DNA of 38,878 nt from a virus (IMGVR_UViG_3300040801_002051:1-38878), one strand, 5' to 3'; counted from the stretch's first letter, positions 3,627 to 38,878 are shown. A program made the numbers and translations. Notes: generated by a model from the letters alone, not told the origin.

Positions 3627-5504
3627 TCAACTCGCCGAAACGACCCGCCAGCGGCGCGGGACAACTCGCGTTTCGTCTTGCTCAATCAATCGGTTACCGA
3701 ATATTCGCCCGCGGAATTTGCGCAGCTTGTAGCCCAGCGCCTGCGATCCCCCGCCCCGTGGTACGTCGCCAAGCATCGACACTATCGACTCATGTAAGCC
3801 GGGCCGCTTAGGTCCACCACCCGCGTATTCGGGCTCACGCTCCGACGCCAACTGCCACAGCTGCGACGCTGTAACTGCTTGATCTCCAAGCTCTGCGTGC
3901 CATGCTTCCAGCAGCGCCATGATTGACGCCTGCTCGTGGTCTTCGTCGCGCAGGTTGCGGCTTGGGCCTAACGGATCGGCCTGGCCCGCCCAGATCAACG
4001 GGAAGCGCACCATGCGATCCCACAGCCCGAAGCGCGTGCGCGACACGCCCTCGGGCATCGGTGAGCCTGCGTCGATATAGGCCTTGGCGATCGTCAGCAC
4101 GGCCCGCACCGCCTCTGCCCGGTGCCGCAGGACATGCTCGCGCGCGTCGCGGCCAAAGGTGCGCTCTTCCGGTCGCTCGACGCCGGCATCGAGGCGCACC
4201 AGCAGGACGCGGGAGGTCAGGTCGCCGAGAAATGTCAGGTTGTTGCCCGTGGCCAGCCAGCAGACGTTGGTCGGCGCCTCCACCTGCTTGGAGAGTCCGA
4301 GCACGCGGCAGACCTTGGAGCGCTGGGTCAGCACCATGCACATGGTCGCGGACTTCCATGCGCGCTCGATGTTGTCCCACACGACGACGCTATCGCCGGT
4401 CATCAGCGCCGTATCGACGCGCTTCTCGGTCTCGGTCTCATCCGGGCCAATGTTGGCGACCGACGGCTCGCGGCCGGTCGAGACCAGCGCGATGCAGTCG
4501 GCCAGCAGACTCTTGCCCGTCGCCGGGGTCGACGCCGATATGCCGCCCATCGGCGCGGAGGGGAGCACGCGCCGGAGGACGGCCGTCATCATCAGCGCCA
4601 GCGCTGCGGAGCGATCCGCGTCGGAGACGAACGGGAATGTGCTCACCAGCTCGGCGAGCACCGCGCAGGCATCTTCGGCGGCCTCGCTTCGGCAGCCTGG
4701 GTCGGATTCGATGGGGTTGTTGCCGAGGTCGAGATCGTGCGTGAGGTACAGCCCCGTTCCCGGGTCATAGCCGGCATCCCGCAGCACCTCGCCCCCCGGC
4801 GTGAGGGTCGGGGATTCGCAGAAGCCCGTCAGCCAGGGGAATCGCCACTCGCCCTGACGGCTCAACAGCGTATCGGCCACCTTGCGTGGGGCATCGATGC
4901 GCACCCAGTCGGCGGTGCGCCCGTCCCACTTCTCCCAGTCAGCGCACCGGCACAGGCGCTCGAGCAGCCAATGCGGCGAGATCTCGAACAGCACGGCCGC
5001 GCCCTGCTGCCGTTCGTAGTCGAGCGATGGCCGCCCGGTTGAGTCCCAGGCGCCCACCCGGACCAGGCGCGTGCCGTGTTGGAACAGCCCGGCGCCCTGC
5101 TCGGACAAGGCCGCCTCGGCCTCGTCGACGATGCGCGGCAGCTCGCCGTTGACAACGCGGATTGTGCGCCGCCCATCCGGGCCAATCAGCCCCGTGCCAG
5201 CACCGGCCCCCGGCCCGTTGCCGCCGGCCGCCGCACCGCGCTTGCGCTGCGGCTTGTCGGCCGCGGCAAAGGCGGCTGCTGCCAGGTCGGACGTGCTCGC
5301 AGCCGCCGCAGCGGCTCCGGCAGGGCGGCCGGGGCAGGGCGGTACGTGCTTAGACCGCACTGGCTGTTCGCCGGGGGCCTCAAACGTTTGATACCAGCCC
5401 GATCCATCGGGCTCGATGATGTTGCGCTTCTGCATCCCGCAGCGCTCGCAGACATAGCGATGCGGCTCGGGATGCGCCCACTTGTGGCGAGGCTTGCCTG
5501 CCAT
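3627..5504 (-). CDS. Putative replicative helicase / replication initiator, SF3 (P4-type) P-loop NTPase with an N-terminal CxxC element
   Basis: Track ORF is 3627..5909. I place the start at ATG 5504 (MAGKPRHKW..), which overlaps the upstream stop (TGATG). The extra 135 N-terminal codons are Arg/Gly-rich and overlap that gene. Motifs: YVCERCG, an Ala/Gly linker, Walker A ASTPATGKS and Walker B-like DSVVVWDNIE. Confidence 0.65.
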   Translation of the reverse strand: MAGKPRHKWAHPEPHRYVCERCGMQKRNIIEPDGSGWYQTFEAPGEQPVRSKHVPPCPGRPAGAAAAAASTSDLAAAAFAAADKPQRKRGAAAGGNGPGAGAGTGLIGPDGRRTIRVVNGELPRIVDEAEAALSEQGAGLFQHGTRLVRVGAWDSTGRPSLDYERQQGAAVLFEISPHWLLERLCRCADWEKWDGRTADWVRIDAPRKVADTLLSRQGEWRFPWLTGFCESPTLTPGGEVLRDAGYDPGTGLYLTHDLDLGNNPIESDPGCRSEAAEDACAVLAELVSTFPFVSDADRSAALALMMTAVLRRVLPSAPMGGISASTPATGKSLLADCIALVSTGREPSVANIGPDETETEKRVDTALMTGDSVVVWDNIERAWKSATMCMVLTQRSKVCRVLGLSKQVEAPTNVCWLATGNNLTFLGDLTSRVLLVRLDAGVERPEERTFGRDAREHVLRHRAEAVRAVLTIAKAYIDAGSPMPEGVSRTRFGLWDRMVRFPLIWAGQADPLGPSRNLRDEDHEQASIMALLEAWHAELGDQAVTASQLWQLASEREPEYAGGGPKRPGLHESIVSMLGDVPRGGGSQALGYKLRKFRGRIFGNRLIEQDETRVVPRRWRVVSAS

Positions 5505-6049
5505 CAGGCCGCGACCGACAGCGGCGCGGCAATCCAGGCCCGCAGACGCCGGTGATAGTCGGCGGCGAGCTGATCCGACCAAGGCGCGGGCCACGCCCCC
5601 GCAAGCACGGCGCGCTGCTGCCGCCGCGCATCCTGTGCCAGCCAGCGCGCATCGCAGGCGTCGCGCACCCACTCCGGGCCGCAATCGGCCCACGCCAGAT
5701 CCTGGAACAGCACCTGCACCGGCGCCGCCACCCGCGCCACTTCGCCGGCCAGCGCGATCAGGCCAAGCCACCCGACTGGATGCGCCTCCGGGGCCTCGTC
5801 GTCCGCCGGCGCGGTCTCTCCGAACGGCCACGTGCACCACACATCCACCGGCAACCCCGCCAGCATCCGCCAATCCGTTGTGCCCGGCCGCCAACGCGGC
5901 CCGACCCACACCGCAGGAGCCCCGCGCACCGTCGCGCGCTGCGGCCCACCCATCACGACGTGGGCGGCATAAGGGTGCACGCCGGCGCGCCGTGCCGCCA
6001 GCAGCTCGCCGCCGAACACCGGCATCTGCAACCGACTCATCGTCGTCAT
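5504..6049 (-). CDS. Hypothetical early protein (181 aa)
   Basis: ATG at 6049 (MTTMSRLQMPVFGG..) overlaps the stop of the upstream 60-aa gene (ATGA). The longer track ORF (to 6385) overlaps two other supported genes. Confidence 0.5.
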   Translation of the reverse strand: MTTMSRLQMPVFGGELLAARRAGVHPYAAHVVMGGPQRATVRGAPAVWVGPRWRPGTTDWRMLAGLPVDVWCTWPFGETAPADDEAPEAHPVGWLGLIALAGEVARVAAPVQVLFQDLAWADCGPEWVRDACDARWLAQDARRQQRAVLAGAWPAPWSDQLAADYHRRLRAWIAAPLSVAA

Positions 6050-6228
6050 CGCTCCCGTGTCGGTGCCTGGAATGCCGCCGCAGCCTGCAGCCGCTGGCGC
6101 GTGTCTGCTTGGCGGCCCGGCCGCCGGCTGCGCCAGTGCCGGGCGCAGTACCAGGGCCCTTTGCCCGCCGTGCTGCTGCTCAGCGTGCCGACGGCGCGGC
6201 AGCCGGGATAGGCGCAGTGGGTCGTCAT
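6046..6228 (-). CDS. Small Cys/His protein (60 aa)
   Basis: MTTHCAYPGCRAVG..WYCARHW. ATGA overlaps at both ends (with the Cro-like gene and with the 181-aa gene) support translation. Confidence 0.5.
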   Translation of the reverse strand: MTTHCAYPGCRAVGTLSSSTAGKGPWYCARHWRSRRPGRQADTRQRLQAAAAFQAPTRER

Positions 6229-6470
6229 GAAGACTTCGTGCTGTTTGTCTGAACACTTCGCAGCGCAGCCCCAAACACGTCTGGCCGCAGGTCATAGCAA
6301 GTGACTGCGCCGCCCGTGAGAGCCTCAATCTGCCCGCAACGCTCAGCAGGAACCCTTGACAGCTCCCACTTGCGCACCGCCTCACTGGTCACGCCAATCG
6401 CTGCAGCAAACGCGGCGCGCGATCGGTACTTACGCAGATACGCGTTCCTCAAGATGGCGGGTGTACTCAT
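6225..6470 (-). CDS. Cro/YdaS-like HTH regulator (81 aa)
   Basis: MSTPAILRNAYLRKYRSRAAFAAAIGVTSEAVRKWELSRVPAERCGQIEALTGGAVTCYDLRPDVFG matches the Cro/YdaS-type pattern (..aVsqW...iP..r...iE..T.G.V...dLrPd.F). It is divergent from the CI-like gene. The ATG at 6470 is preferred over the TTG at 6509. Confidence 0.7.
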   Translation of the reverse strand: MSTPAILRNAYLRKYRSRAAFAAAIGVTSEAVRKWELSRVPAERCGQIEALTGGAVTCYDLRPDVFGAALRSVQTNSTKSS

Positions 6471-6561
6471 AATGCCGCCCAGCTTAGCCACCAATAGTTG
6501 CGATTGCAACCAAACGAAGCAACAACTGATTGTTGTGCCGCCTGCCGCTAGACTTCAACTT
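6471..6561. promoter_or_regulatory. Divergent promoter/operator region between the Cro-like and CI-like genes
   Basis: Contains the palindromes GTTGCgattGCAAC (about 6497-6510) and CAACAActgaTTGTTG (about 6520-6535). It also contains the 11-mer ATTGTTGTGCC (6529-6539), which recurs at 9841-9851. Confidence 0.6.
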
Positions 6562-6939
6562 ATGGTTGCCACGCCAAAACAAGCCTTTGCGCGTCGACTG
6601 AACGCGCTGTGCGATGCAGAGAACGTCCCGCAGCGCGGGCGGCGTGTCGCGTTGGCAAAGGTGACAGGCGTCAGCGGCGAGGCCGCAAGGAAGTGGATAT
6701 CGGGTGAGGCAATCCCGGCCATGGACCACGTCGTGATTTTGGCGACACACTTTAGGGTCAACGCGCAATGGCTACTTACCGGGCTAGGCCCGCAAGAGAT
6801 AGGAGCGGGCGCGCTTACGGAAGAGGAGCAAAGGCACATTGAACGTCTCCGCTGCATGCCCTCTCCCGATCGCGCCCGCGCCTTTCGAGTCATCGAGGCG
6901 CTTAGTTTGCCGGACGTGCCCCGCGACAACGCGGCTTAG
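6562..6939 (+). CDS. CI-like XRE-family HTH repressor (125 aa, no S24 peptidase domain visible)
   Basis: MVATPKQAFARRLNALCDAENVPQRGRRVALAKVTGVSGEAARKWISGEAIPAMDHVVILATHFRVNAQWLLTG is a typical lambda-CI/XRE HTH ending in ..WLLTG. The ATG is at 6562. The upstream part of the track ORF (from 6301) is antisense to the Cro-like gene. Confidence 0.7.
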   Translation: MVATPKQAFARRLNALCDAENVPQRGRRVALAKVTGVSGEAARKWISGEAIPAMDHVVILATHFRVNAQWLLTGLGPQEIGAGALTEEEQRHIERLRCMPSPDRARAFRVIEALSLPDVPRDNAA

Positions 6940-6960
6940 GTGCCGGTCGCGGCGTATGGC

Positions 6961-8703
6961 TTAGGTGTTACCCAGATAGCGAAACTCGTTCGGTGCCTGC
7001 TGCGGGTCTCGTTTGATCGGCGCGTCGAACGGCAGGTCAAGCACACGGTTAGCAATGCCGAGATTCGACTTCATGTACACAGGCACCCCCGCGGCGTCGG
7101 CCTGGCGTACAAGGTCTTCAATCCACCGATATGGCGGATGCCAGGCGGGGGTCTGCGTGCTGCTGCTGGCGCCTCCGATCACAAGCCAGTCGAACAGGTC
7201 CAGCCGCTCGAACCGCAACGGCTCAATCAGCGGCTCAACCGACAGCCAGCGCACTTTCCCCCCCACGTTTTCAAACGCGTTCTCCGCGTTTTTCACGCGC
7301 GCCTGCATGTCGACCGTGGCCCCCATCCATGCGTTGTCTGGTATATCGAACTCCTTCATGCGCTGCGGGAACTTCGTCAGGAACAGGAAGTTCCACTCAG
7401 CACTATCGCGCACCGTGCCGAGCACCGCGTCAATCCACTCCGCCGGCACCCAGCGCCCGAACAGGTCGGCCATGGAGCAGGTGAAGACGTTGCGATGGCG
7501 CGTGTCTGCCGCCGCATCCTTCGGCACCTTGGTGCGCGCAGGCGCGTTCAGTGCGTTACTGCGGAACGTCGGGGCAAAGCCGTTCGGGTAGACCTTCGCC
7601 ATGCGCTGGCTCAGCGCAATGTCGCGGGCGTAGCAGTATGGGCAGTCATGCTTGCATCCCGTCACCGGGTTCCACGACCACTGCGCCCACTCGATGGCGT
7701 CGTTGTCTTGCTTGTTGAACGCGCCCCCTTCGCTTTGCAAGGGCGTCAACAGCATGTTGCGCTCGTCGTCGCCGATGTCTTTCCACTCATCGAGAGAGCA
7801 GTTGCGCCGCAGGCTGACCACACGTGCCTGTGCGTCTTCTTCGGCACGCTGGCGCTCAACCTCTTCCGCCCTGGCCGCGGCGTCAATTTTGGACTGCTCG
7901 TCTTCGTACCCCGCAACGATTGCGCGCACCGCAGACAGCCGCGCGGGCAGCGTGTTCGCAATTTTGGCGAACATTGCCGACGTCAGATCGCCGTCACGCA
8001 CGCCATGCTGATCGATGACGTCGTGCATGCGCGCAATCTCCGCCGGCTTCATAGCGCCGGACAGCACCGCCGCTGCGATCCCGCCGCGGTCAAAGCACGC
8101 GCGCGGCTCCTCGATCCCCTTGACGCCCTGCACCCGCTCGCGCGTCTGCGCCACGGTCCACCCGGTCTCGACCATCTTCGCCACGAGCGCGGACCAGAGC
8201 CAGCGCGGCGCGGCGTGGATTTCGGCGAGGTTGGACCATGTGCGTCGGGCATCCTCGATCTCGATATCGAGATGAGTCGCATGCAGCACGTTCCACGCGC
8301 GCACCTTGGTGTGCATCGTCTTGTGGTTCTTCCCTGCCACCTCCGCATACGCCTTCAGGTCCATGCCCGACTCGGCGGCGTGCTTGCCTTCCTCCAGGGC
8401 GTGCAGCTCCGATTGCGTGTTGCACAGCACCAGCTGCATGTAAGCGTCGGCGTCGGACAGCTCACGCACCCAGCACGGGACCGAGGGCAACCCGGCCTGC
8501 TGCGCCGCCAGCCAGCGATGGTGGCCGCTGACGATCTGGTAGCCGTCGTCAAGCGGTCGCACAATCAGTGCGTGCGCCGGGTCAAAACCGTCGGCGATAC
8601 GCGCGGCGAGCTGATCGACGACATCTTGCCGCGGCTCAATACGCGGGTTGTTCGGGTGGGGGTGCAGAGCGGTGACGGCGAGTGTGACGTGTTCAGTGTT
8701 CAT
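6961..8703 (-). CDS. Fusion protein: N-terminal ParB/Srx-like domain plus C-terminal Gp37/Gp68 (DUF5131, radical-SAM-like three-Cys) domain (580 aa)
   Basis: N-terminus: LHPHPNNPR..IVRPLDDGYQIVSGHHRWLAAQQAG. C-terminus: IEWAQWSWNPVTGCKHDCPYCYA (CX3CX2C), VFTCSMADLFG, FLFLTKFPQRM, RWLSVEPLIEPL, DWLVIGGAS, AGVPVYMK, which is the PF07505 pattern. The ATG at 8703 overlaps the HNH stop (ATGA). Confidence 0.85.
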   Translation of the reverse strand: MNTEHVTLAVTALHPHPNNPRIEPRQDVVDQLAARIADGFDPAHALIVRPLDDGYQIVSGHHRWLAAQQAGLPSVPCWVRELSDADAYMQLVLCNTQSELHALEEGKHAAESGMDLKAYAEVAGKNHKTMHTKVRAWNVLHATHLDIEIEDARRTWSNLAEIHAAPRWLWSALVAKMVETGWTVAQTRERVQGVKGIEEPRACFDRGGIAAAVLSGAMKPAEIARMHDVIDQHGVRDGDLTSAMFAKIANTLPARLSAVRAIVAGYEDEQSKIDAAARAEEVERQRAEEDAQARVVSLRRNCSLDEWKDIGDDERNMLLTPLQSEGGAFNKQDNDAIEWAQWSWNPVTGCKHDCPYCYARDIALSQRMAKVYPNGFAPTFRSNALNAPARTKVPKDAAADTRHRNVFTCSMADLFGRWVPAEWIDAVLGTVRDSAEWNFLFLTKFPQRMKEFDIPDNAWMGATVDMQARVKNAENAFENVGGKVRWLSVEPLIEPLRFERLDLFDWLVIGGASSSTQTPAWHPPYRWIEDLVRQADAAGVPVYMKSNLGIANRVLDLPFDAPIKRDPQQAPNEFRYLGNT

Positions 8704-8924
8704 GCGGCTTTTCCGTGAATCTTGCAGTGGCATGCGTGGCAAATCGGATCGAGGTTTTCAGGCACATCGAACGTGCCCCAGGGCTTTGGATAGCGCACGT
8801 GGTGCACCTCAGATGCCGGCGCACCGCAGTGCACACAGCGCCCATCTGCGCGGTCGATGGCAACTGCCCGGATCGCCTTGAACAGCGGGTGGTTCAGATA
8901 CTCGTCGTAGTTGCTGAAGTGCAT
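8700..8924 (-). CDS. HNH endonuclease-like small protein (74 aa)
   Basis: MHFSNYDEYL..GRCVHCGAPASEVHHVRYPKPWGTFDVPENLDPICHACHCKIHG has the CxxC..HH..N..CxxCH..H arrangement. The ATG at 8924 lies 2 nt after the upstream stop. Confidence 0.7.
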   Translation of the reverse strand: MHFSNYDEYLNHPLFKAIRAVAIDRADGRCVHCGAPASEVHHVRYPKPWGTFDVPENLDPICHACHCKIHGKAA

Positions 8925-8926
8925 CG

Positions 8927-9706
8927 CTAGAGCCCCAGCGCCAGTTGGCCATGCTGCTCGGCGCCCTCGATGCGCGCCTTGCACCGCGACAAGATGTGCC
9001 GCCCCATGTCCGAGTCCAGGTGATAAAACCCCATCGTGCGGTGCTCTCCGATGCGCGTGTTACGCCCGATCAGCACCGTCCACTGGTGCGATCCCATCGG
9101 CTTGCGGATCAACCAGTGGCGCTTGTTGATCTGTGCGATTGCCTCGTCAATGTCGACAAAGTGCCAGTCGTGGCCGCGGTACAGGCGTCGCACACGGCTG
9201 TTCCAGTGGATGGCCACATCCAGCCGCGGGCACTGCTGCGACAGCCAAGCAAGCTCATCAATTGGCGTCTCGAACCCGTTGGGGTCAGACAGCACCAAGC
9301 CCGTCGCGAACTGCGGCTTGTCGTTGTACGTGCTAACGATGCGGGGAATTGCCTGGATCAGCGAAGCGTTGCGCCCGTGGAAGCAAAACGCAGCGCGGTT
9401 GCCGCTGATGCCAGGGCGAGCCATCAGCGACCGCAACGCTTGCGCGTCCGTGTCGCAGAACCCCGCCATATAGCGCAGCGACTCGAACTGCGCGGCTGCA
9501 CGCAGGAACGCCAGCGGCGAGCCGATGCACCCCACGTCTTCGTTGATGCCGCTGCCGCTGTTCAGGTCGAAGTGCCAGTAGGGGTGTCGTGCCCCGAACT
9601 TCGCGTAGAACACCCGCAGGTTGATCGTGAACGCGGCTTCCAGCCCGCGCTCCTTGAACTCAGTATCGCGCGACTGCCCCTGTCGCGCTAACGTCTGTCG
9701 TGTCAT
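8927..9706 (-). CDS. TcmP-like (three-Cys-motif partner) protein, Rossmann/methyltransferase-like (259 aa; 277 aa if the TTG at 9760 is used)
   Basis: YWHFDLNSGSGINEDVGCIGSPLAFLRAA..FCDTDAQALRSL..GLVLSDPNGFETPIDELAWL resembles the TcmP (TIGR04474) pattern y.DlfaG.G...GSp..al...f.E.d...L...flDPyG. It sits in the same operon as a DUF5131 protein. Assignment is by motif memory only. Confidence 0.6.
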   Translation of the reverse strand: MTRQTLARQGQSRDTEFKERGLEAAFTINLRVFYAKFGARHPYWHFDLNSGSGINEDVGCIGSPLAFLRAAAQFESLRYMAGFCDTDAQALRSLMARPGISGNRAAFCFHGRNASLIQAIPRIVSTYNDKPQFATGLVLSDPNGFETPIDELAWLSQQCPRLDVAIHWNSRVRRLYRGHDWHFVDIDEAIAQINKRHWLIRKPMGSHQWTVLIGRNTRIGEHRTMGFYHLDSDMGRHILSRCKARIEGAEQHGQLALGL

Positions 9707-9760
9707 CGTCAGATACCTACTCTGTCTGTCGGTGATAGCCGCCGCTTGGGTCGTGTCCAA

Positions 9761-9870
9761 GCGGCGGCGCCACTTTCAGTTTCGGTTACTGCGCGCGCAA
9801 AAGCAACTATTGGTTGTTGACGTTACAACCGAAGGTGGTTATTGTTGTGCCTGAACGCAACCGAAACTTG
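9761..9870. promoter_or_regulatory. Divergent early promoter/operator region
   Basis: A perfect 10-nt inverted repeat, AGTTTCGGTT (9778-9787) and AACCGAAACT (9859-9868), brackets GGTTGTtgacgttACAACC (9812-9830). It also brackets ATTGTTGTGCC (9841-9851), the same 11-mer as in the cro/cI intergenic region. Confidence 0.55.
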
Positions 9871-10675: not shown

Positions 10676-10946
10676 TCTGATCCACGACCCATTGATTGGC
10701 GTGCTTGCCATCGTCGGCGCCCTGGCGCTGCTGTTTGCTGCACTCGGCGTGCTGGCCTGGCTCATCGACAAGCACCAGCGCCGCGATACATGCCCTGCGA
10801 GTGACGCGGCGACACTCGGCACGGCGCACGACCCCGAGCGCGACCCCGCGCTATCGCCCGCCATCCGCGCCGCTTACATCGTCGAGCGGGATCACCTGGC
10901 AGACCTGAGCAACGCTTGTGAGCGCGGCGCGCGGAGGGTGTGCTAA
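10668..10946 (+). CDS. Small membrane-anchored protein (92 aa)
   Basis: N-terminal hydrophobic helix PLIGVLAIVGALALLFAALGVLAWLI followed by KHQRR. The ATG overlaps the upstream gene end by 8 nt. Confidence 0.55.
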   Translation: MFDLIHDPLIGVLAIVGALALLFAALGVLAWLIDKHQRRDTCPASDAATLGTAHDPERDPALSPAIRAAYIVERDHLADLSNACERGARRVC

Positions 10947-11233
10947 TGGGGGGCTTGGCCTATAGCGCGCACGAAGACGCGACACTGCTCGATCTGCGCG
11001 ACAAGGGCGTGGGTTACAAGGACATCGCCAAGCGCCTAGGCCGAACGCACCAAAGCGTTAAAGCGCGCGGCATGGTCTTGAACAAACGCGGGGCGACAGT
11101 GGACACCGTGCGATCAGCCGGCGCGCAAGATTCGCGGCTCGCAGCGATACGCGCTGAAAACAACCGCCGGCTTCAGGCCGCGCGCGCGCGCTACCAAACG
11201 ACCTGGCAACCCGGCCAGCCTACGCAGTGGTAA
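10946..11233 (+). CDS. Myb/SANT- or GcrA-N-like HTH protein, paralogue 1 (95 aa)
   Basis: HEDATLLDLRDKGVGYKDIAKRLGRTHQSVKARGMVL. The C-terminal motif is RAENNRRLQAARARYQTTWQPGQPTQW. The ATG at 10946 overlaps the upstream TAA (TAATG). Confidence 0.6.
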   Translation: MGGLAYSAHEDATLLDLRDKGVGYKDIAKRLGRTHQSVKARGMVLNKRGATVDTVRSAGAQDSRLAAIRAENNRRLQAARARYQTTWQPGQPTQW

Positions 11234-11238
11234 CCGTC

Positions 11239-11427
11239 ATGAGCAAATCGTTTTGCGACTGGACAGAAGATAGAGAGTATTGGGCGGCAGCCTGCGGACA
11301 GTTGTGGGCTTTTGTGGACGGCGGGCCAGAAGACAACAACGTGCGGTACTGCCACTATTGCGGGCGCCCTGTGCGCGTGCTGCGCACTGACTACAGCGCG
11401 CCCGATCCTGACGCCGAAGAGGCTTGA
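11239..11427 (+). CDS. Small zinc-ribbon-like protein (62 aa)
   Basis: MSKSFCDW..AAACGQLWAFVDGGPEDNNVRYCHYCGRPV has C..C and CxxC pairs. The ATG lies 5 nt after the upstream stop. Confidence 0.5.
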   Translation: MSKSFCDWTEDREYWAAACGQLWAFVDGGPEDNNVRYCHYCGRPVRVLRTDYSAPDPDAEEA

Positions 11428-11440
11428 GGAGCATGACGCT

Positions 11441-11779
11441 ATGAGCTTGGCCGGTAGCCTTTGGACCAAGAGTGACGAAAAGAAGCTGGCGCGACTGTAC
11501 CGCAAGGGCGTCGGCGATGCCGAGATCGCCCGAAAGCTGATGCGCACCGAGCGGGCCATCAAGTACAAGCGTCAGCAATTGGGCCTGGTGCAAGCTGTGC
11601 AGCTTTGGCAGGGCCGCGGCCCAAGCCCGCGCAAGCCGACCCCGGCGCGCCGCTACCGCAACCGCCCGGACCCCTCGCCCAACCTCGACCTGCTGCGCGC
11701 CGAGAACGACGCCCGCCAGCGTGCGGCCCGCGCCCGGCATCACAGCAACTGGACGCCGGGCGAACCGGCAGAGTGGTGA
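11441..11779 (+). CDS. Myb/SANT- or GcrA-N-like HTH protein, paralogue 2 (112 aa)
   Basis: WTKSDEKKLARLYRKGVGDAEIARKLMRTERAIKYKRQQLGL. The C-terminal motif is RAENDARQRAARARHHSNWTPGEPAEW. GAGGAG lies 7 nt upstream of the ATG at 11441. Confidence 0.6.
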   Translation: MSLAGSLWTKSDEKKLARLYRKGVGDAEIARKLMRTERAIKYKRQQLGLVQAVQLWQGRGPSPRKPTPARRYRNRPDPSPNLDLLRAENDARQRAARARHHSNWTPGEPAEW

Positions 11780-11784
11780 AGACC

Positions 11785-12030
11785 ATGCACGCAGACAACA
11801 ACGGCACCCCAACGCAACAAGCTCGAGCGCGCGTGCATTGGATGAGTGCGTCAGCAGCCAATGCGGTCGATCGCGCCAAGCGGCGGCGATGCGGACATTG
11901 CGCGTTTTGCACAAGCACGGGACGGCGCAGCTATACGTGCATAAAGCATCGTTTTGCAACAACGCGCATGGCGTTTTGCGACACATGGGCGGCTCGATGG
12001 CCCGGAGAAGTGAGGAAGATCCTATTATGA
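11785..12030 (+). CDS. Small basic Cys-rich protein (81 aa)
   Basis: MHADNNG..RRRCGHCAFCTSTGRRSYTCIKHRF... The stop overlaps the ATG of the next gene (ATGA). Confidence 0.4.
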   Translation: MHADNNGTPTQQARARVHWMSASAANAVDRAKRRRCGHCAFCTSTGRRSYTCIKHRFATTRMAFCDTWAARWPGEVRKILL

Positions 12031-38509: not shown

Positions 38510-38878
38510 CTAGAGGACGTCGAGCAGGTCGTTGGAGCAGGGCGCGCTGGATGGTGCGGCCGGTTGTTGCGGGTCGGCGAAGAGGTCGCCCTGTACTGGG
38601 CAGACTGTGTCGCGCAAGCGCTCCCAGTCTTTGGCGCGCATGTACTGCAAGCCGATGCGACGGCCGGGGCCAATGGCGCGGCTGCCGGAGAGGTGGGCGG
38701 CTGCCCAGGCGTAGACGGCTGTGTCGACGGCCTCGTTGCGGGCGGCTGAGCTGATCTTGACCCAGCGGTTGGTTTGCGGGTCGCGGCGCTCGCTGGTGAT
38801 GCCGGTCGGCCAGTTCTCCGGCGTGTCGCTTGGCAAGTGCCACCAGCGATCTGCAGGGGCTTGGCTGGCGACCATGGC
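38510..38878 (-). CDS. Terminase large subunit, 3' portion (C-terminal 84 codons unique; 38762-38878 duplicates 1-117)
   Basis: ..RWWHLPSD..RWVKISSAARNEAVDTAVYAWAAAHL.. matches the GpA C-terminal motif (lambda ..KKRRNEALDCFVYALAAL). It is in frame with 1737->1 across the circular junction. Confidence 0.93.
   Translation of the reverse strand, partial: AMVASQAPADRWWHLPSDTPENWPTGITSERRDPQTNRWVKISSAARNEAVDTAVYAWAAAHLSGSRAIGPGRRIGLQYMRAKDWERLRDTVCPVQGDLFADPQQPAAPSSAPCSNDLLDVL
38762..38878. repeat. Terminal direct repeat, identical to 1-117
   Basis: Direct comparison of both window ends. Confidence 0.95.

Follow-up and report, generated by a model that had tools for sequence, protein, structure and literature searches.

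The viral stretch IMGVR_UViG_3300040801_002051:1-38878 (38,878 nucleotides, which as a whole is called the window here) carries in its early region a minus-strand cassette of three genes. These encode, in this order, a 259-aa protein resembling TcmP (three-Cys-motif partner protein), a 74-aa HNH protein and a 580-aa fusion, in which a ParB/Noc-like N-terminal part precedes a DUF5131 (Gp37/Gp68) domain with the cysteine spacing of radical S-adenosylmethionine (SAM) enzymes (Table 1). The original prediction, made from the sequence alone, described three tightly coupled genes, and this arrangement was confirmed by the called open reading frames (ORFs), in whose translations the motifs that it quoted were found. 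The TcmP-like stop codon and the HNH ATG are separated by 2 nt, and the HNH stop and the fusion start overlap in ATGA; judged from this spacing, the three genes are translationally coupled.

Table 1. Features of the cassette and its surroundings (positions in the window)
Feature	Position	Strand	Basis or remark
TcmP-like partner, 259 aa	8927..9706	-	TIGR04474 match below cut-off, AF2, Foldseek, conservation
Small HNH endonuclease, 74 aa	8700..8924	-	Pfam near-miss, PHROG HNH families, residues
ParB::DUF5131 fusion, 580 aa	6961..8703	-	
ParB/Srx N-terminal domain, residues 7-96	8416..8685	-	Pfam ParB_N, motifs
ParB/Noc-type HTH DNA-binding domain, residues ~97-200	8104..8415	-	PDB profile, Foldseek, NCBIfam
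Helical spacer, residues ~201-330	7714..8103	-	AF2 secondary structure, conservation
DUF5131 radical-SAM domain, residues ~331-580 and stop codon	6961..7713	-	Pfam, TIGR04471, AF2
Divergent intergenic control region, between cassette (-) and + strand early genes	9707..9841	.	135 bp, sequence
cI-like HTH repressor	6301-6939	+	Convergent with cassette
Cro/YdaS-like gene	6225-6509	-	
Primase-like gene	3627-5507	-	
AF2, AlphaFold2; HTH, helix-turn-helix.

The C-terminal domain of the fusion was matched by the Pfam family DUF5131 (PF07505) at E=6.4e-41, with 140.9 bits against a cut-off of 28.9 over residues 336-546, and the proposed family membership is therefore significant. The radical SAM mobile pair protein A family (TIGR04471) was hit at E=7.7e-21, far below its equivalog cut-off. 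The radical-SAM spacing CX3CX2C was borne out as C350-KHD-C354-PY-C357 (CKHDCPYC, nt 7633-7656), with an aromatic residue preceding the third cysteine. These three cysteines are invariant in 48 of 48 fusion homologues, and one further cysteine, C409, is nearly invariant. Intein and LAGLIDADG domains were found in three homologues (P0008, P0020, and P0060). In both aligned ones (P0008 and P0060), the intein lies between the residues equivalent to Y356 and C357 (window nt 7633-7638), and the third cluster cysteine is its +1 extein nucleophile; the same Pfam intein domains were found in P0020 by domain scan. Inteins usually occupy essential active sites, and insertion exactly at the third cysteine argues that CX3CX2C is the functional centre. 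In the AF2 model of the fusion (pLDDT 89.8), the domain consists of six beta-strands alternating with helices, and its best radical-SAM matches in the PDB, as found by Foldseek, are RlmN (E=1e-3) and spore photoproduct lyase (SPL, E=5e-3), both weak because the query had several domains. The CX3CXPhiC motif is common to the domain, SplB and RlmN/Cfr, and a partial (beta/alpha)6 TIM-barrel radical-SAM fold may be so as well; however, full-length sequence similarity to these enzymes is not significant, the two extra catalytic cysteines of RlmN are not evident (C409 being the only further candidate), and a fused ParB part and a partner of methyltransferase fold are lacking in both enzymes. Weak NCBIfam matches to the PA0069 and Rv2578c radical-SAM families are limited to the Cys-motif region and far below cut-offs; we take these families to belong among the SplB-like "DNA repair photolyase" proteins. 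In RadicalSAM.org, DUF5131 forms Megacluster-5-2 and SPL is 5-3 in the same megacluster (PMC9477430). The DUF5131 domain is most likely a radical-SAM barrel, with a predicted [4Fe-4S] cluster held by C350, C354, and C357.

The N-terminal part of the fusion begins with a ParB N-domain of the PF02195 type, as had been proposed; Pfam ParB_N matches residues 7-96 at E=3.4e-12, with 46.7 bits against a cut-off of 26.3. Its box-like motifs are PHPNNPR, GHHR, and xNTQSEL, and the residues N19, P20, R49, G60, H61, R63, N95, and Q97 are invariant among the 48 homologues. When the profile of these homologues was compared with the PDB, residues 3-201 aligned to structures of Noc, Spo0J, and ParB (E=3.9e-19), the AF2 model was matched to Noc/ParB by Foldseek over about 200 columns (E=1.9e-9), and NCBIfam gave a noc-like match for residues 7-195, far below the equivalog cut-off. 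Because of the profile and structure matches, the first 200 residues are read as a complete ParB N-domain with helix-turn-helix (HTH) domain. The helical linker of about 200 aa described in the original prediction thus stands only for residues ~200-330, whereas residues ~100-200 belong to the ParB/Noc HTH domain. The remaining spacer holds one 43-residue helix (256-298 in the AF2 model) and a conserved lead-in to the radical-SAM domain, SLxEW..ER..LL / FNKQxNxxIEWAQWSWNP, which also occurs in long DUF5131 relatives without a ParB match. The CTPase motifs are not canonical, with NPR in place of QPR, GHHRWLAA in place of GERRxRA, and LCNTQSEL in place of ENLQRE; alignment to Noc shows that these boxes still have the second Arg, the Asn, and the Gln but no longer the Glu residues. 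Nucleotide gating by this module is possible. The candidate role of a partition ParB was rejected, since no ParA was found among those window ORFs, a part of the total, that were scanned with Pfam or PHROGs, and since the C-terminal dimerisation domain of ParB is replaced by the radical-SAM domain in the AF2 model. A 16-bp perfect, relatively AT-rich palindrome, ATCTCGATATCGAGAT, was noticed inside the fusion gene at 8258-8273. It corresponds to the codons for LDIEIE, where the ParB HTH region has a loop that varies. Homologues do not conserve it, and for this genome its count does not go beyond chance.

The TcmP-like protein was matched by TIGR04474 at E=7.1e-7, but its 29.4 bits fall short of 53, the curated cut-off, and its relatives score 26-39 bits; one of them carries the JGI (Joint Genome Institute) label "three-Cys-motif partner protein." Because of this score, the protein is considered a divergent TcmP relative and not a member by the curated rule, so that the proposed identification as TcmP holds for the methyltransferase-like fold and for the adjacency to DUF5131, but not for TIGR04474 membership. 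No match was obtained in Pfam, PHROGs, or PADLOC, and a sequence search of the PDB gave no credible match. The family is large; a profile search against 1.84 billion cluster representatives (E<=1e-3) recovered 1,349 representatives of 50%-identity clusters. The AF2 model (pLDDT 86.6) has the seven-stranded, Rossmann-like topology of class-I SAM-methyltransferases. The top PDB match in Foldseek is the m6A rRNA methyltransferase RlmJ (E=6e-9, TM about 0.5), a DUF519 protein is also among the best matches, and only generic methyltransferases were found in the BFVD fold search. Motif I reads FDLNSGSG (nt 9548-9571) and DPNG stands at the motif-IV position (nt 9275-9286). D47, G51, G53, N113, D141, and N143 are invariant, and D85, P142, and G144 nearly so (P142 and G144 at least 90% conserved); D47, G51, and G53 follow beta-1, D85 follows beta-2, and D141-P-N143-G144 forms the loop after beta-4, so that the conserved residues occupy places that are also conserved in SAM-dependent methyltransferases. 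This loop departs from the amino-methyltransferase motif IV, (D/N/S)PP(Y/F).

The structural neighbours of both proteins raise the question of whether the cassette modifies host RNA (rRNA or tRNA) and thereby reprograms translation during infection. The best structural matches are rRNA enzymes, RlmJ (m6A2030) for the TcmP-like protein and RlmN (m2A2503) for the radical-SAM domain, and some depositors label prophage DUF5131 genes "RNA methyltransferase." However, the enzyme is fused to a ParB/Noc N-domain with HTH, which is a dsDNA-binding module, the third component is an HNH DNA nuclease that is fused to the TcmP-like protein in some lineages, and the neighbouring genes serve DNA metabolism. 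An RNA target is therefore regarded as quite improbable.

To describe the distribution of the cassette, ORFs were called in 164 loci and searched with hidden Markov models (HMMs) built and iterated from the window's family. The census is based on 114 non-redundant DUF5131 genes, comprising 60 ParB-fused, 13 other long, and 41 short stand-alone forms. A word-index protein search with the fusion gave 2,101 matches, stand-alone DUF5131 proteins included; the best 120 of these are nearly all full-length ParB_N+DUF5131 fusions with 48-69% identity. IMG/VR contained 434 confirmed relatives among 599 candidate stretches, and a one-genome-per-species set contained 103, most of them DUF5131 genes of the stand-alone kind from Firmicutes. 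Among metagenomic and viral contigs, ParB::DUF5131 fusions occur commonly. In INPHARED, blastn with the 2.8-kb region and tblastn with the TcmP-like protein found nothing, and tblastn with the fusion found stand-alone DUF5131 domains only, none full length; they occur in phiE125 (gp37), Che9c (gp68), and many actinophages. With no match there to the fusion or its partner, no cultured phage with known DNA chemistry is usable for comparison. The upstream neighbour of gp37, phiE125 gp38, was tested as a TcmP candidate and rejected as not TcmP-like.

In the census, which bears on the co-occurrence of the three genes, a TcmP-like gene is adjacent and on the same strand in 54 of the 60 ParB::DUF5131 loci (~90%), upstream in 53 of them. 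It also lies directly upstream in 12 of the 13 long DUF5131 forms without a ParB HMM match and directly downstream in the remaining one; when the N-terminal extensions of 8 such forms were scanned with Pfam, only one was recognised, as DUF3102. None of the 41 short stand-alone genes has a TcmP-like neighbour, and in a sample of 42 stand-alone DUF5131 genes, 41 were without one that the locally built HMM could detect. The DUF5131/TcmP pair, earlier described as conserved, is thus conserved in the long forms and not in the stand-alone ones, and the pairing appears from these loci to be a trait of the long, N-terminally extended clade. Strong conservation among the neighbours is confined to the TcmP-like gene, which is present in 61 of the 76 long-form loci, while the flanks vary, with ParB::methyltransferase genes in 9 and C5-methyltransferase genes in 7 of the 76 (within 5 kb), and with integrases, helicases, and repressors; the cassette is therefore seen as a mobile accessory module of phage early regions. 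Loci without the TcmP-like gene have unrelated neighbours, apart from two (L004 5060-5983 and L090 7081-7983) in which a TIGR-Tas RNA-guided endonuclease gene stands directly upstream of ParB::DUF5131, at the TcmP-like position. NF052498, whose cut-off is 100 bits, scores these two genes at about 202-204 bits, and no array was found beside the one in L090 by Tandem Repeats Finder.

The stand-alone genes bear on another explanation, namely that the cassette supports DNA repair or replication, with an SPL-like radical-SAM lyase that scans DNA through its ParB part and processes a lesion, the HNH protein nicking and the TcmP-like protein serving as accessory. Stand-alone DUF5131 genes are found in replication modules, and their annotated or Pfam-marked neighbours include genes for single-stranded DNA-binding protein, processivity factor, DNA polymerase, and primase. 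In the Firmicutes prophage regions L015-L044, the gene lies in a conserved module without a TcmP-like gene, downstream of a ~715-aa protein with Cys-rich zinc-finger-like motifs and upstream of genes for 134-aa and 204-aa proteins and a ~350-aa protein that looks like the DnaN beta-clamp, both labels coming from a reading of the sequence only. In Flavonifractor porci (L025, 5145-6005), a gene for an Ogg-like HhH-GPD DNA glycosylase (TIGR00588, E=5e-40, below cut-off) is directly upstream of a stand-alone DUF5131 gene. The place of SPL among the best structural matches, the shared megacluster, and the weak hits to the presumably SplB-like PA0069 and Rv2578c families point the same way. However, the confinement of these family matches to the Cys-motif region, far below cut-offs, the lack of an obvious lesion-reversal role for the methyltransferase-fold partner present in ~90% of the fusions, and the fact that no lesion needing such a system is known in temperate phages make a repair function rather unlikely.

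The small HNH protein, proposed as an extra component of the pair, proved to be a recurrent one. Of the 65 non-redundant pair loci, 26 (~40%, the window included) have it either between the TcmP-like and DUF5131 genes or as part of a fusion. Recognition by HNH models was divided. The Pfam family HNH (PF01844) was missed narrowly (E=4.7e-4, 20.7 bits, 0.7 below the cut-off of 21.4), while PHROG HNH families match down to E=4e-9 and the residue pattern CxxC..HH..N..CxxCH..H is intact (C30/C33, H41-H42, N57, C62/C65, H66, and H70). Among 23 cassette HNH proteins the catalytic residues are largely kept, with Glu in place of the last His in several and single-sequence variation elsewhere. In L001 (5843-6004), a 53-aa N-terminally truncated cassette HNH, missed by the source gene calls, was seen between the TcmP-like gene and the fusion; it may be a decaying or minimal form.

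It could be argued that the association is partly accidental, the HNH protein being a selfish homing or packaging endonuclease and the ParB part serving the partition of a plasmid-prophage. The HNH gene is absent from 60% of the pair loci, its best PHROG match is a family labelled terminase small subunit, and its pairwise identity does not track that of its neighbours, although the co-inheritance test on HNH, TcmP-like, and DUF5131 pairwise identities was uninformative, as even DUF5131 and TcmP gave rho=0.16. On the other side, the position and strand of the HNH gene are fixed across the pair loci, and it is about as conserved as the DUF5131 domain (mean pairwise identity 52% against 58%; TcmP-like 28%). 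In L153 and L151, the TcmP-like and HNH parts share one reading frame; more such fusion proteins, from 97% down to 29% identical, were retrieved with the L153 query, two different HNH forms were found in the six fusion sequences that were read, and in L166-L168 the fusions are followed directly by long DUF5131 genes. Since several diverged lineages fuse the two in frame, the HNH protein is taken as a genuine part of the system; a selfish endonuclease, whether for homing or for packaging, would not account for this pattern. For the ParB part, the lack of ParA in the scanned ORFs and the replaced dimerisation domain, both described above, also count against an accidental origin, which is thus held to be very improbable.

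Several known systems offer comparison. The family name Gp37/Gp68 goes back to gp37 of Burkholderia phage phiE125 and gp68 of mycobacteriophage Che9c, and stand-alone phage genes of this kind, e.g., phiE125 gp37, lack the partner described here. In the TcmP/DUF5131 pair (TIGR04474 and PF07505), the same two lineages are adjacent and co-directional in phage or prophage contexts and the Cys triad is the same; however, the present DUF5131 enzyme has ~330 extra N-terminal residues (ParB N-domain, HTH, and spacer), its partner forms a diverged subfamily that scores under the TIGR04474 cut-off, and a small HNH protein, separate or fused to the partner, is the third component. In line with the earlier statement that the pair has no assigned function, a full-text literature search found no functional study of DUF5131, TcmP, or PDC-M30/M41, but only annotation tables and the RadicalSAM.org listing. 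The ParB-N-fused phage DNA methyltransferases of phrog_498 also place a ParB/Srx N-domain N-terminal to a DNA-acting, SAM-using early-region enzyme, which gives a supporting link to DNA; here, the catalytic domain is a radical-SAM barrel, not an N6/N4 methyltransferase, and the Noc/ParB HTH is retained as well. The Dpd system contains a ParB-superfamily protein, DpdB. ParB-superfamily DndB is a member of the phosphorothioation DNA-modification system, in which it works with DNA-modifying enzymes and associated nucleases (PMC10853773). In Dnd and Dpd, the protein of ParB type stands apart as a regulator or ATPase, unlike the fused module here, and their chemistry (phosphorothioate, 7-deazaguanine) is performed by unrelated enzymes, with no homology to the catalytic components found here.

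The PADLOC models PDC-M41B and PDC-M30B match the DUF5131 domain (residues 335-546, E about 1e-39), the B components of PDC-M30 and PDC-M41 being DUF5131 proteins too, though in bacterial candidates without a ParB fusion. Only this B component is present here, and since the TcmP-like and HNH proteins match no PADLOC model, the cassette is not PDC-M30 or PDC-M41 as defined. The cassette could nevertheless be a phage-borne conflict system, which would exclude superinfecting phages, serve as anti-phage defence, or attack the host's DNA. The ParB-radical-SAM and HNH proteins would then damage or cut foreign or host DNA, and marking the phage's own genome would not be the main purpose. Besides the PADLOC matches, a canonical TcmP gene is listed as adjoining the Hna defence gene in S. 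meliloti, the cassette lies beside the immunity region in a variable accessory neighbourhood with non-conserved flanks, and the HNH catalytic residues are kept. The TIGR-Tas gene that replaces the TcmP-like gene in L004 and L090 also suggests that the site is a hotspot for conflict genes. Against this stand the two components without a PADLOC match, the 60% of pair loci without a nuclease, and the occurrence mostly in viral contigs with early or replication genes and not in bacterial defence islands; the PDC systems are themselves mere candidates. A conflict role, with which the shared biochemistry would also agree, is considered unlikely.

The explanation that we favour, tentatively and at somewhat short of even chances, is that the cassette is a DNA-targeted radical-SAM system, which would most likely install a chemical modification on DNA after replication; the role that we prefer is to protect or mark the phage's own DNA. 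A ParB/Noc module, a radical-SAM domain, a methyltransferase-fold partner, and a DNA nuclease converge at one locus, which suggests an enzyme complex acting on dsDNA. The earlier proposal that the enzyme is DNA-directed is strengthened by the full Noc/ParB N-domain with HTH and by RlmN, which acts on RNA, and SPL, which acts on DNA, as nearest radical-SAM folds. Further links to DNA are seen in phrog_498, in the ParB::methyltransferase and C5-methyltransferase genes near the long-form loci, and in the DNA-modification system to which DndB belongs. The invariant CX3CX2C with its inteins, the conserved pairing with the TcmP-like gene, the HNH gene at the junction or fused in frame, and the motif I, post-beta-2 acidic residue, and DPNG loop kept by the TcmP-like protein also count in favour. 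The domain identities, conserved catalytic-type residues, gene coupling, synteny, and gene fusions are observed; we infer a DNA substrate, a chemistry, nucleotide gating, and a biological role along the following lines. The Noc/ParB-like N-domain with HTH would bind DNA, maybe in a nucleotide-gated and clamp-like manner, and the long helical spacer would hold the DUF5131 domain on the duplex. This domain, with a [4Fe-4S] cluster bound by C350/C354/C357, would cleave SAM to the 5'-deoxyadenosyl radical, which could abstract a hydrogen from a base or sugar, by analogy to SPL and RlmN acting on nucleic acids. The TcmP-like protein, with its RlmJ-like SAM-binding fold, would act at the same site and, by transferring a group, either prepare the modification or complete it. 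The HNH protein would be the optional nuclease arm, which either cuts unmarked DNA, as in restriction-modification, or nicks it to give the enzymes access.

Several points weigh against this proposal. About 10% of the ParB::DUF5131 genes and nearly all sampled stand-alone DUF5131 genes lack a detectable TcmP-like neighbour. The TcmP-like protein may not be a methyltransferase, as the DPPY catalytic motif is absent, and the radical-SAM fold matches, at E about 1e-3, are weak. In the ParB part, the CTPase motifs are degenerate forms of the canonical ones, as GERR is replaced by GHHR and ENLQRE is without its catalytic Glu. A repeated parS-like site was not found in the genome when palindromes and 12-mers were examined; palindrome counts are close to the shuffle expectation and there is no recurring site. 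The match of DUF5131 to B components of PADLOC candidate-defence systems leaves a defence or exclusion role equally open, and these matches, together with the TcmP gene adjoining Hna in S. meliloti, fit defence as well as self-protection.

If DNA modification and nuclease are considered jointly, then the cassette might be the first phage system to use radical-SAM chemistry for DNA hypermodification or in a manner resembling restriction-modification, with the HNH protein cutting unmarked DNA; this is a speculative extension and is judged improbable as a whole. In it, the ParB module would load on the phage's own DNA and carry the radical-SAM domain along, and an unprecedented base modification would be made with the RlmJ-like partner. 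As for the chemistry, a methyl group or an adenine carbon could be functionalised by a radical route, and one way to picture such a system is as an oxygen-independent counterpart of phage methyltransferase/TET pairs.

The radical-SAM subgroup DUF5131 is large and associated with phages; its partner has a name, TcmP, but is uncharacterised. What is new in this known pair is the ParB tether on the DUF5131 enzyme and the HNH protein as third component in ~40% of the loci. The fused full ParB/Noc module and the HNH protein recurrently beside or fused to the partner are two strong hints at an action of the pair on DNA, and the variant is widespread in uncultured phages. If a new DNA modification is indeed made, then phage DNA chemistry would be extended to radical-SAM enzymes, two PADLOC candidate defence systems would be explained, and there would be a new way to approach the evasion of restriction or the labelling of DNA. 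If the cassette is a defence or exclusion system instead, it would represent a new effector type.

As for the genome itself, the ends of the window carry an exact 117-bp direct repeat (1-117 and 38762-38878), which shows a circular assembly and a complete phage genome of ~38.76 kb. It is described as myovirus-like because a tail sheath, tape measure, baseplate, portal, and head protease are encoded. The operon structure and the site beside the immunity switch agree with what had been proposed, with the cI-like and Cro/YdaS-like genes at the positions listed in Table 1. Beyond the intergenic control region, the first + strand ORF begins at 9842. A perfect 12-bp inverted repeat, GCCGCCGCTTGG-N7-CCAAGCGGCGGC, lies at 9738-9768, 32 nt upstream of the TcmP-like start, and could be an operator or an RNA hairpin. 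A third copy of its 12-mer is found at 11876-11887, without genome-wide enrichment of the 12-mer, and the promoter and terminator scan gave nothing better than shuffles, with one weak sigma-70-like + strand site at 9817-9845. A 592-aa + strand ORF (6940-8718), antisense to the fusion, was not accepted as a gene, being a shadow ORF of the kind typical of high-GC coding regions; the minus frame has a GC content at third codon positions of 0.80 and carries all the homology. The early operon on the + strand encodes, at 10940-11233 and 11312-11779, two small HTH proteins that are paralogues; both belong to phrog_323 ("transcriptional regulator, D5-like") and their C-terminal tails are alike.

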